64,000 nucleotides of DNA from Bacillota bacterium (GTDB lineage: Bacteria > Bacillota > JAAYKD01), in assembly GCA_963666425.2 (NCBI GenBank), contig OY762825.2:352001-416000 (forward strand), in the 5' to 3' direction. Positions 10,487-13,266 of this stretch are shown here, piece by piece (position 1 is the stretch's first letter; each line of letters opens with the position of its first letter). Under the pieces are notes generated by a model. It was given only the letters and a program-made list of their open reading frames with translations, was not told the origin of the DNA and did not search any database. Both the position numbers and the translations under genes were made by a program.

Positions 10487-12004
10487 TTAGACTTGTTTGA
10501 CAAAAAGAAAACTGGCAGCAGTCGTATCTCTGCTGCTTTGATAGGTGAAAGCAATGATACGCCCCTCCTGATCCCGGTTGAATTTCAAGTAAACATCGGA
10601 ACGGCAGGCATTGGGTAGACATAGAAACAGATCTTGCTCAAGCGATAAATAAGTCAAATCCGAAGCGGTATCGTGCTGATTGAGATTGCTGACAACGAGA
10701 TTATTCTGCATCGGCTCGACCTGATAGGCTGTCTCAAGCGCAGGGCAGCGATAAGTCCCGCGATACTCGAGCCACGGCTGCATGAATCTATCTTCTTTGA
10801 CGTCCGCTAACCAGGCTGCATCTGATGCCTTTTCTGCGCTGTGTTGACTGCTGCTGCCAGGGACGGTAGAGTCAAACCCGACCATGCGCGATTGATTTTC
10901 CGGTTTTTCACTGTTTTGACCGAGCAGCAAGCGCAAAACACGCTCCAAGAGATTATTGTTTTTAAAACCAATATCCATTTCATAAACAAAGTCGCTGTGA
11001 TTGCCCAAGGTGATCACAGATGTTTTCAGCTCCGGTATTTGAATATAATATGCGCTGTAGCCTCCGGCAGACCCACCATGATGGATGATTTTCCGGCCGG
11101 CAAATTCTCCTATGAAGAGTCCGCAGCCATAACCGGTAAGAGCTCCGTTGTTTAGTTTTCCGGATGATGTCAGAAAATCAACCAGGCTCTGTGAACCTTT
11201 TCCTAAAATATTATGGTAAAAATTCTGATCCCAACGCAAGAAATCTTCTACAGTCGTCCAAATCTGACCCGCACCGCCCACTTCAACAACTTCTTCATTT
11301 AAAGAATAAAAATCGTTGCGGCTGCAATACGGCTTGCGGTGGTCATTGGCATGCATCCGACTGTAATTGCTATAACCGGCTGCTTTGTTTTTGATGATTT
11401 TCGTGTGATCATCGCGAATCAAAGTATGGCTCATCCCCAGTGGCTGAAAAATCTGTTCATCAGCAAATTGACTCAAAGACAGATTGGTCAGCTTTTCCAC
11501 CAATTGCCCAAGTAAAAAATAGCCGCTGTTGCCATAACTCCAGCGTTCACCGCTTTTAAACAAGCGCCAATCACAAGCAGTAAGATAACGCCAGAATTCT
11601 GCGCGGCTGATTGCTTCATCTTCATGGATTCCGCAAACCGCACTGGCGGTCTCATAAACATCCGGCAAACCGTTGGTCATCTGCAGCAAGTTTAGAATCG
11701 TAATCGGATCACCTCTGTCATTGACCTGAGGAAAATAGGTTCTGATGTCTTGCTCTGCCGTTAGCTTTCCTTCTTCAATCAATAATGCGATACAAGCAGC
11801 TGTGAATTGCTTGGCAAGGGAACAACCATGGAAAACCGTCTGAGGCCCAATCGGGATCTGATGCTCCAAATTCGCCAAGCCATATCCCTTACAAAAGATC
11901 AAATCCTGGTTCTTCACAATACCAAGCAGAAAGCCGGGGTCATTATTCCTGTTGTATTTCTGACAAATCAACTCGATCTGTGCTAAGTCTTGTTTTACCG
12001 ACAC
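10487..12004 (-). CDS. Serine hydrolase, beta-lactamase/class C-like fold, with C-terminal extension; no obvious signal peptide
   Basis: SxxK (CSLAK), YxN (SYGN), HGG triad; GYGLANLE. Confidence 0.85.
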   Translation of the reverse strand: MSVKQDLAQIELICQKYNRNNDPGFLLGIVKNQDLIFCKGYGLANLEHQIPIGPQTVFHGCSLAKQFTAACIALLIEEGKLTAEQDIRTYFPQVNDRGDPITILNLLQMTNGLPDVYETASAVCGIHEDEAISRAEFWRYLTACDWRLFKSGERWSYGNSGYFLLGQLVEKLTNLSLSQFADEQIFQPLGMSHTLIRDDHTKIIKNKAAGYSNYSRMHANDHRKPYCSRNDFYSLNEEVVEVGGAGQIWTTVEDFLRWDQNFYHNILGKGSQSLVDFLTSSGKLNNGALTGYGCGLFIGEFAGRKIIHHGGSAGGYSAYYIQIPELKTSVITLGNHSDFVYEMDIGFKNNNLLERVLRLLLGQNSEKPENQSRMVGFDSTVPGSSSQHSAEKASDAAWLADVKEDRFMQPWLEYRGTYRCPALETAYQVEPMQNNLVVSNLNQHDTASDLTYLSLEQDLFLCLPNACRSDVYLKFNRDQEGRIIAFTYQSSRDTTAASFLFVKQV

Positions 12005-12133
12005 TCTGTTTCATCCTACTTTCTTGCTAAATTTACGGAAGACAACACACCTATGTTTTCCAAACAAAATCAACTATAAAACAAAATCCACCGCAAAACA
12101 AGGTAGAGTTTGATTATAGAGATAAAATACACA

Positions 12134-12164
12134 AAAGCAGCCGCTCTCATGATTCGGCTGCTTT
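12134..12164 (-). terminator. Intrinsic terminator immediately after the CD3324-family gene
   Basis: AAAGCAGCCG/CGGCTGCTTT stem followed by TTTTGTGTATTTT. Confidence 0.7.
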
Positions 12165-12169
12165 GCGAT

Positions 12170-12436
12170 TTATACTTTACGATAAAGAATGCTCTTGATC
12201 GCATCATAGGATAAATGGTATTCACTAATTAACTCGTCGATACTGGCTCCATTTTGTTTTCTCTCTCTAATTTGACTGTTACGCTCCAGTATGCGATTTT
12301 TACAATTGGTAGAAGCACCCCAATTCTTCCTACGGGCTTGATTTTGTGGGATGTAGATGATGCTGCCGCTGACATATTGTTGAATTTGCTGCAGCAGATT
12401 CTCCGGTAAAATATCGTTTGCATTAATATATTGCAT
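12170..12436 (-). CDS. CD3324 family / Mor-like HTH regulator
   Basis: MQYINANDILPENLLQQIQQYVSGSIIYIP...WG...RNSQI...GASIDELISEYHLSYDAIKSILY pattern. Confidence 0.8.
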   Translation of the reverse strand: MQYINANDILPENLLQQIQQYVSGSIIYIPQNQARRKNWGASTNCKNRILERNSQIRERKQNGASIDELISEYHLSYDAIKSILYRKV

Positions 12437-12442
12437 TTAAAT

Positions 12443-12596
12443 CCTGCCTCTTTTCTTGTCTTGATCAGAAAGCAGGGTTATCAAAATGAAGTCAATCAGC
12501 GATTCTTGATTTTAGCTCTATGCAACCAATCGCTGCATTTATTTGCCTAACCCCGCATAGAGCAGCATGCCGATTTTTAACACGTTGTCACCTCCA
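12443..12596 (-). promoter_or_regulatory. Leader-peptide translational attenuator upstream of the CD3324-family gene
   Basis: Four complementary pairs: 12555-63/12515-23, 12528-35/12497-504, 12548-56/12472-80, and CCTGCTTT against the SD region GAGGCAGG at 12443-50. Confidence 0.6.
12539..12583 (-). CDS. 14-aa leader peptide MLKIGMLLYAGLGK
   Basis: SD GGAGGTG, then GTG start and TAA stop; lies within the attenuator helices. Confidence 0.65.
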   Translation of the reverse strand: MLKIGMLLYAGLGK

Positions 12597-12696
12597 AAAG
12601 CCAATGTGAACTTATTTTCCTACTGAACTCTGCTTCTAATTCGTGAGCTCTGCCGGGAAAGCCTGCTGAATTTTCGATCATCTGACGCAAAATATA

Positions 12697-12737
12697 AAAA
12701 AACCGCTCGCAGCTTTTTAAAAGGCGAGCGGTTTTTT
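12697..12737. terminator. Intrinsic terminator ending the amidohydrolase-DUF3100 operon
   Basis: AAAAAACCGCTCGC/GCGAGCGGTTTTTT. Confidence 0.8.
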
Positions 12738-12753
12738 AACGCGGTAAGAAAAA

Positions 12754-13266
12754 TTAGATTTGTCCGGTCGCCTTCAAAGCGATTTGGGCAATGATGGCGG
12801 AAGCCATATAGGTTCCGATAAAGGTAAATAATGCGGTAACCACAATCGCCACACCTTGTTTTCTGAAGGCGGGCAGATCTTTACCGATGGAAATACCGGC
12901 ATAAGACAGAATCGGTGTGCAAAGCGGCAGCAGACCGATTTTGTTGAATTCAGTGGACATCCAGGTAGCGATCGGAGAAAGGCCAGGAATACCAACTAAA
13001 ATAGCGATCATGGAAATAAACAGAATACTTGGAAGATCGGCCTTCGGCCATTTTTTCTCGACCCAGTCGGTGATGATTAAGCCAACCACACAAATGGCTA
13101 CCATCAATAACAATGCCGGCCAAACATCCCAAGGCATATAAATTTTTACTTTATCAGGGGTAAGTGATCTGGTTTTGGTCACCCAAGTATTGATTGTATT
13201 ACCGATGGAAGCAAACAAAATTGAAAAAAACAAAACTTTTAAGCGTGTTGCCCATTTTTCTGACAT
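12754..13266 (-). CDS. Membrane protein, partner of DUF3100 (putative two-subunit transporter)
   Basis: 5 TM helices; LCTPILSYAGISIGKDL...TFIGTY motif; adjacent to DUF3100. Confidence 0.7.
   Translation of the reverse strand: MSEKWATRLKVLFFSILFASIGNTINTWVTKTRSLTPDKVKIYMPWDVWPALLLMVAICVVGLIITDWVEKKWPKADLPSILFISMIAILVGIPGLSPIATWMSTEFNKIGLLPLCTPILSYAGISIGKDLPAFRKQGVAIVVTALFTFIGTYMASAIIAQIALKATGQI

Follow-up and report, generated by a model that had tools for sequence, protein, structure and literature searches.

Leaders in which a short open reading frame (ORF) governs the expression of a downstream gene have been described in several systems, of which the translational attenuation mechanism of ermC was used here for comparison (PMC5418344, partial text). 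In ermC, as in ermA and ermB, the short leader ORF has its own Shine-Dalgarno (SD) sequence, the ribosome-binding site (RBS) of the downstream gene lies in a hairpin, and a segment of the leader ORF takes part in an alternative pairing, so that a held ribosome would expose the RBS (PMC5418344, partial text). The leaders of cat, cmlA and fexA are likewise translational attenuators, with a short leader ORF beside an SD-sequestering hairpin (Table 1 of PMC5418344, partial text). In a further group, comprising vmlR, bmrCD, lmo0919, ermK and msrD, ribosome inhibitors are sensed in Bacillota through an upstream ORF or the leader itself, and transcription is attenuated by means of terminator and antiterminator hairpins (PMC5418344, PMC9226507, PMC10314930; partial texts). 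The element considered here lies at positions 12437-12600 of the window, i.e., the whole 64,000-nucleotide (nt) stretch of Bacillota bacterium DNA that was analysed. With a probability of about 0.7, this region forms the 5' leader of a gene of the CD3324 family, whose translation it attenuates in the ribosome-dependent manner of ermC.

The features of the ermC and cat type recur in the window: an SD-led leader ORF, a sequestered RBS, and mutually exclusive pairing tied to RBS release. However, the leader has no sequence or Rfam relation to ermC, and its wiring differs. Whereas ermC follows a four-segment 1:2/3:4 scheme, the present leader has three helices and an SD hairpin, and its RBS would be freed of an anti-SD by a leader-ORF segment that mimics the RBS spacer; its leader peptide and frame are also not conserved. 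Furthermore, ermC regulates a resistance enzyme, whereas the downstream gene encodes a small helix-turn-helix (HTH) protein of the CD3324 family in 61 of the 63 homologous loci described below and a Mef-like pump, scoring below the cut-off of the resistance model, in the other two, so that a resistance determinant is not what this leader precedes. In cat, cmlA and fexA, a single hairpin is melted directly by the stalled ribosome; in the present leader, ~100 nt lie between the leader ORF and the SD hairpin downstream of it, which strand exchange through helix C would open. Unlike the vmlR-type leaders, the switch ends at the SD. Attenuation through an intrinsic terminator was rejected on two counts, namely a U-rich tail after helix B in only 4 of the 63 loci and no terminator-like site within 12437-12600; the rarity of the tail therefore indicates translational control rather than control by termination.

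All leader features of the window are on the minus strand. The leader SD, GGAGGTG (12595-12589), is separated by 5 nt from a GTG at 12583, which opens a 14-codon ORF, MLKIGMLLYAGLGK, closed by TAA at 12541-12539 (ORF 12583-12539). Helix A joins GCTCTATGC (12563-12555, within leader codons 7-10) to GCATAGAGC (12523-12515) over 9 bp, and helix B joins CAGCGATT (12535-12528) to AATCGCTG (12504-12497) over 8 bp. Helix C, also of 9 bp with one G.U, is formed by GCGGGGTTA (12556-12548, leader codons 10-12) and TAACCCTGC (12480-12472). This last arm overlaps the anti-SD CCTGCTTT (12476-12469; combined span 12480-12469), which pairs with GAGGCAGG (12450-12443) in the RBS of the CD3324 gene; together with its spacer, the RBS occupies 12450-12437, followed by the main ATG at 12436. 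The arms are interleaved: the loop of B contains the 3' arm of helix A, and that of A contains the 5' arm of B. Helix C encloses B and has 2 bases in common with the 5' arm of A. The initial annotation of this DNA had listed the 14-codon ORF and these helices, with A competing against B plus C; every listed feature was located, and the topology was borne out in the window sequence.

This RNA can adopt two mutually exclusive folds. In the closed fold, presumably the default state, helix A joins leader codons 7-10 to a segment ~32 nt downstream, and a CCUGC-containing stretch remains free to pair with the main SD region, closing the RBS. In the open fold, the leader-ORF segment just 3' of helix A pairs with the same stretch to give helix C, with B nested inside, and the RBS is without a partner. 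A ribosome held early in the leader, with its peptidyl (P) site ~6-18 nt before helix A, which in the window corresponds to codons 3-4, would flip the RNA by melting helix A while sparing the 5' arm of C, so that B and C could form and the regulator could be translated. A ribosome-targeting drug is one candidate trigger for such a hold. The small HTH regulator would then presumably act on the adjacent enzyme gene, which in the window encodes a hydrolase of beta-lactamase fold.

Close relatives of the locus are scarce. A word-indexed protein search gave 3 proteins, and in a scan of genome contigs the single protein gave no match and a 3-sequence alignment gave one, from Clostridium oryzae, whose homologue shares 64% protein identity with the window protein. 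Between the window and C. oryzae, the leader from SD to main start is 64.6% identical and the coding sequence 63.6%; the corresponding values are 36.4% for third codon positions and 38.6% for the DNA upstream of the leader SD. Judged from these sequences, the comparison confirms the leader element as real and beyond chance, and settles what the window alone cannot. A covariance model built from four leader sequences (R1) found two further copies in C. oryzae and one before a 40%-identical homologue in another genome. A second model (R2), used for the wider search, gave 34 hits in 22 of the 148 scored Clostridiaceae genomes and a further 75 in f25, a second family, spread over 52 of its 151 genomes. 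Of 150 other genomes sampled evenly across the window's phylum, only 2 had hits, and both belong to f25. In Paenibacillus polymyxa and Bacillus mycoides, one plasmid each gave a hit (34.3 and 25.2 bits, respectively). Both of these copies carry SD-led upstream ORFs, and both regions are without a listed feature in a gene table that is incomplete there. A sequence search of the plasmid collection gave no similar DNA.

From the 109 hits, 63 loci were examined (the window, L004, L008, L045, L048, L049 and L056-L112), divided into two sets of 34 and 29 sequences. In 61 of them, the leader ends at the start codon of a CD3324-family gene of 87-97 amino acids (aa), and in the remaining two it directly precedes the gene of a Mef-like pump of the major facilitator superfamily (MFS). 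At L056, an intact leader (169 bits) stands before a CD3324 gene of only 65 codons (L056:1668-1865, plus strand), which may be a pseudogene.

As the search model had no helix A, the alignment was made without fitting to this helix. Over the 63 sequences it is 97.6% paired, compared with 21-56% when the partner is slid, and 34 cells show changes on both sides; none of 500 shuffles reached the observed pairing, the number of double-change cells or the covariation score. Exchanges of U-A to C-G and of A-U to G-C occur at three pairs (11 sequences each), with G.U intermediates being common. Helices A and B together, over 34 sequences, are 94% paired and have 11 pairs with changes on both sides (0/500 shuffles); 7 of the 8 pairs of helix B have such changes. 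Both MAFFT and model-fitted alignments misplace the 3' arm of helix C and, in f25, that of helix B as well; C was therefore tested, and B retested, without an alignment. In every locus, the 15 nt after helix A pair best with a stretch 33-41 nt upstream of the main start. No more than 10 of 200 shuffles were as good in 61 of the 63 loci, and none was in 45, with 50 distinct arm pairs represented. The two misses are artefacts of the window setting used in this test, and L069 has a good helix C. Helix B by itself gave a weak signal when tested without an alignment, with at most 10 of 200 shuffles matching it in only 33 of the 63 loci.

The coupling between leader ORF and RBS can be followed from clade to clade. 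In sequence, the 5' arm of helix C is similar to the SD-to-start spacer, and all three partners change together: the C 5' arm, anti-SD and RBS read GCGGGG, CCCUGC and GCAGGA in the window, GCAGAAUCAG, CUGAUUUUGC and GCAAAUUAG in one other clade, and GCAAAGUCUGU, ACAGGCUUUGC and GCUGAGCUU in another. The 5' arm of helix C appears in this way to mimic the RBS spacer, and so to act as an anti-anti-SD. In the f25 loci (L084-L112), an extra helix between CUAUAAACAAC and GUUGUUUAUAG extends B and C to one long hairpin, with which a local hairpin, AAACAAC-GGCG-GUUGUUU, competes; the switch in these loci may have more than two layers.

All loci of both sets (34/34 and 29/29) have an SD-led ORF whose frame is uninterrupted across the 5' arm of helix A, where dinucleotide shuffles lead one to expect 6.9 and 8.3, or ~15 of 63; an SD-like motif was required and was found before the ORF in every case. 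The initial annotation had put forward a conserved leader ORF and covarying helices in homologues as the test of its proposal. That test was run, and the idea survived it: the ORF is present in 63 of 63 loci and helices A, B and C all covary. As regards the ORF, it is the presence that is conserved, while peptide, frame, length and stop position are not. Relative to the conserved CTCYRTGC, the ORF is in frame 0 at 39 loci, in frame 2 at 22 and in frame 1 at 2. It is between 13 and 45 codons long and terminates either shortly after the 5' arm of helix C or downstream of the 3' arm of helix A. Because frame, length and stop vary while the ORF is always there, translation across helix A, and not a peptide, is what seems to be conserved. 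In one clade, with the ORF start 54-60 nt upstream, codons outside the helices differ by a single synonymous base 101 times, compared with 59.8 expected, and third codon positions are the least conserved; this synonymous excess supports genuine translation of the predicted leader ORF. A functional micropeptide was ruled out, as the peptide is not conserved. The +X+ macrolide-arrest motif was also set aside, being inconsistent among the leader N-termini by eye.

Sequestration of the RBS is predicted throughout. In the local minimum free energy (MFE) folds of all 63 loci, the RBS window is paired with the 3' arm of helix C, as proposed in the initial annotation, and at least three of the four bases of the SD core are paired in every one of these folds. 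In the window, both the MFE and the centroid structure pair CCUGCUUU with GAGGCAGG, and in C. oryzae a competing pairing between (G)GAGC of the RBS and GCUCU in the leader ORF is part of the MFE structure. When forced in the window, the two states are nearly isoenergetic (-37.5 kcal/mol for A with anti-SD:SD, -37.3 kcal/mol for B plus C), and the median difference over the 63 loci is -1.0 kcal/mol. The effect of a bound ribosome was approximated with a crude equilibrium model of occupancy, in which a footprint from -12 to +15 around the P site was made unpairable. For 23 of 34 loci, this model opens the RBS most when the P site precedes helix A by 6-18 nt, in agreement with the proposal that opening is greatest when the leading edge of a ribosome early in the leader has reached the 5' arm of A and is still short of the 5' arm of C. 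The position of this peak follows the start of the ORF, at codons 3-4 in short ORFs and at codon 17 in 27-codon ORFs.

Several results weigh against an attenuator of the ermC type. Taken alone, the 191-nt leader of the window has an MFE of -42.7 kcal/mol (z -0.26), 77 of 200 dinucleotide shuffles being at least as stable, and a 271-nt stretch gives z -0.69 against shuffles; since the window fold is no better than shuffles, the question needed relatives. These relatives do not amount to 63 independent trials, as the loci are related, and the alignments of helix B were fitted to the model. No conserved arrest peptide or motif was found among the leader ORFs of the 63 loci, and the predicted stall site falls in the most variable part of the leader peptide. 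Forcing helix C instead of A leaves the RBS less paired in 43 of the 63 loci, equally paired in 7 and more paired in 13, with median paired fractions of 0.72 and 0.83, respectively; B plus C alone therefore gives no clean open state. In the occupancy model, the probability that the RBS of the window is unpaired rises modestly, from 0.22 to 0.47, and 11 of the 34 loci have no peak at the predicted place. An H-type pseudoknot in which helices A and B are both formed is conceivable in principle. Finally, only about one third of the CD3324 genes of f25 have a leader (75 hits for ~223 gene matches), and with R1 and R2 no further leader was found at the 38 distant metagenome loci L007-L044, which encode longer CD3324-like proteins, or at L002, L003 and L005.

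The alternative that fares best, although it is unlikely, retains the same RNA switch and lets the ribosome be held by physiology: by limiting charged tRNA, by the supply of ribosomes or initiation factors, by temperature, by a monitor of the SecM/MifM/CliM kind, or through plain coupling of leader translation to co-transcriptional folding. The architecture described above is evidence for this explanation as much as for the ermC-type reading, and an unconserved peptide and frame are easier to reconcile with general sensing of ribosome movement than with an arrest peptide specific to a drug. In one clade, a hydrophobic N-terminus, MIRLNLGFF.G, is apparently maintained by coding constraint, and an arrest peptide of Clostridia, CliM, has been published upstream of yidC (PMC13183943, partial text). 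However, the leader peptides of most clades are far too short and variable for a membrane-insertion monitor, no single-amino-acid codon bias is evident in the leader ORFs (by eye, uncounted), and the neighbouring genes encode modifying enzymes and pumps, not biosynthetic or secretion functions.

It is improbable that the leader instead resembles a riboswitch, in which the binding of a ligand, protein or tRNA selects A or B plus C and the upstream ORF is incidental. Translational riboswitches, too, are built from two covarying alternative folds and an expression platform that sequesters the SD, and the downstream genes form a coherent family. Against this, the SD-led ORF occurs about four times as often as the shuffles predict and shows an excess of synonymous changes, and the conserved leader bases are almost all inside helices, with no conserved pocket evident by eye. 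Nor is there a match to an Rfam family: with Rfam 15, nothing reached the gathering score in window positions 11900-13000, and nothing was found at E-values up to 0.1 in seven homologous loci. A still weaker proposal, for which very little room is left, is that the inverted repeats upstream of a putative DNA-binding protein gene are DNA operators for autoregulation by the HTH protein. Unlike those of operator palindromes, the arms interleave, at distances of ~32, 23 and 68 nt; the element also precedes MFS pump genes with no adjacent CD3324 gene in the locus; and pairing is kept through G.U in the minus-strand RNA only, one pair of helix A being G-C in 35 sequences and G.U in 28, so that the frequent G.U pairs would fit an RNA of the minus strand and not a DNA palindrome. 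Chance complementarity with a chance short ORF, to which only the unexceptional fold energy of the window lends itself, is refuted by all comparative data and can be given next to no weight.

The gene behind the leader (12436-12170, minus strand) encodes an 88-aa protein with a C-terminal HTH, which matches the CD3324_fam model NF040785 of NCBIfam with 101.9 bits (cut-off 65) over model positions 1-82 of 82. The same model is matched by 53 of 53 scanned proteins downstream of leader homologues. The initial annotation had called this regulator CD3324/Mor-like, and the first half of the name stands on these scores. As regards the second half, Mor of phage Mu (PF08765, PDB 1rr7) is also a small protein with a C-terminal HTH, and PF08765 is the sole Pfam match (E 4.3e-5), but its 23.9 bits fall short of the gathering cut-off of 24.9 and the fold match falls short of significance. 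The AlphaFold model of the CD3324 protein (mean predicted local distance difference test score 82.8) consists of a short beta element and a C-terminal three-helix bundle; in a Foldseek comparison its best matches are partial HTH domains, with 1rr7 ranking first (E 0.52, template modelling score 0.35). A PDB fold search with this model gave no significant match, and a sequence profile search of the PDB with the protein returned only a designed repeat protein and no Mor. On the strength of the model and its HTH, the CD3324 protein is a putative transcription factor.

The family is found well beyond this locus. NF040785 is present in 118 of the 151 genomes of f25, CD3324 genes are also carried by Clostridium butyricum, Bacillus mycoides and Paenibacillus polymyxa plasmids, and a search of the phage collection with the homologous protein of L084 gave no match. 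The family model also scores above its cut-off in the Bacillus subtilis control genome. In the window's genome, the CD3324 gene is single copy, and a search of 9 genomes from its genus, family or order gave no match; this absence, together with the closest resemblance being to Clostridium copies, suggests that the cassette may have been acquired horizontally. Contig 4 of C. oryzae contains three cassettes of leader and CD3324 gene within ~45 kb (~1-49 kb; L050-L052), surrounded by a DDE transposase gene, several GNAT genes and one gene each of the TetR and LuxR/MalT-like kinds, and looks like an accessory-gene island.

The genes that follow the regulator offer some indication of the signal. 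In the window, a 505-aa serine hydrolase of beta-lactamase fold (12004-10487, minus strand) matches PF00144 with 161.9 bits, and with every named beta-lactamase model its score is far short of the cut-off. This gene is a candidate for what the regulator acts on. A PF00144 hydrolase gene follows the cassette throughout the closest subgroup, which comprises the window (10487-12004), two C. oryzae copies (L048:2011-3180 and L045:1916-2323) and the metagenome contig L008 (769-1053). One of the C. oryzae hydrolase copies is a 135-aa N-terminal fragment only. Elsewhere, the regulator is typically followed by a GNAT acetyltransferase, a class I S-adenosylmethionine-dependent methyltransferase, a beta-lactamase-fold hydrolase, an esterase, an alpha/beta hydrolase or a nucleotidyltransferase-like gene, and on the named plasmids by an alpha/beta hydrolase and a metallo-beta-lactamase-fold hydrolase. 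No gene after the regulator scores high enough for a named resistance model, and the families concerned are common ones. The two leaders without an adjacent regulator are weaker copies that precede MFS_3/MFS_1 genes (L069:205-1512, minus strand, 45.5 bits; L083:1645-2928, plus strand, 36.1 bits), whose products score 122.7 and 114.6 bits against the Mef(A) model (cut-off 675) and are thus distant relatives of that pump. These copies show the leader to work, by all appearances, as a portable module. The neighbouring genes and the Mef-like pumps are hints only of an antibiotic or translation-stress signal. It is a tentative extension of the attenuator reading, and one more apt to be wrong than right, that the leader is a general sensor of ribosomes arrested by inhibitors, from which the signal would be relayed through the attenuator to a CD3324 HTH activator and on to an adjacent drug- or xenobiotic-modifying enzyme, or sometimes directly to a Mef-like pump.

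Upstream of the leader, on the same strand, lie genes for a 170-aa membrane protein without a Pfam match (13266-12754) and a DUF3100 membrane protein (255.9 bits), which together span 14159-12754. The former gene is ended by a strong terminator-like hairpin with a T run, in which CCGCTCGC and GCGAGCGG flank a loop (12731-12694, minus strand); the pattern scan missed it because this loop is longer than the scan allows. The hairpin is probably an intrinsic terminator and would mark the 5' limit of the leader transcription unit, GGAGGTG lying ~100 nt downstream of it. A second terminator-like hairpin, found by the pattern scan, follows the CD3324 gene (12151-12130, minus strand). The intergenic region contains a single, weak sigma-70-like promoter match (TTAAAA, 18 nt, TATATT; 12720-12691, minus strand), where 2.0 such sites are expected from shuffles, and the match by itself is therefore no evidence. 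A sequencing run guessed to be of RNA gave a single 191-nt contig over 12265-12453, which is uninformative on the leader.

In the literature searched, which left subscription journals and supplements outside, no description of the element and no relevant CD3324 paper was found, and a term search of the partial text of PMC6429828 returned no description of the element. The leader is apparently undescribed as such; it would belong to the known leader-ORF translational attenuators, with an unusual target in a regulator family of uncharacterised function.

The finding extends the short list of attenuators that sense ribosomes by a leader-ORF switch with good support, and it gives a first regulatory handle on the uncharacterised but common CD3324/NF040785 family. 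The covarying triple of RBS-spacer mimic in the leader ORF, anti-SD and RBS makes the mechanism directly testable, the variable gene beside the regulator offers a route to the signal, and the 63 aligned examples are ready for curation as an RNA family. As the switch stands before a putative transcription factor, a translational signal would be relayed to the transcription of neighbouring enzyme genes. If the tentative relay from arrested ribosomes holds, the uncharacterised CD3324 family would gain a function, and hundreds of CD3324 cassettes on Clostridium, Paenibacillus and Bacillus chromosomes and megaplasmids would constitute a hidden inducible regulon of detoxification or resistance.

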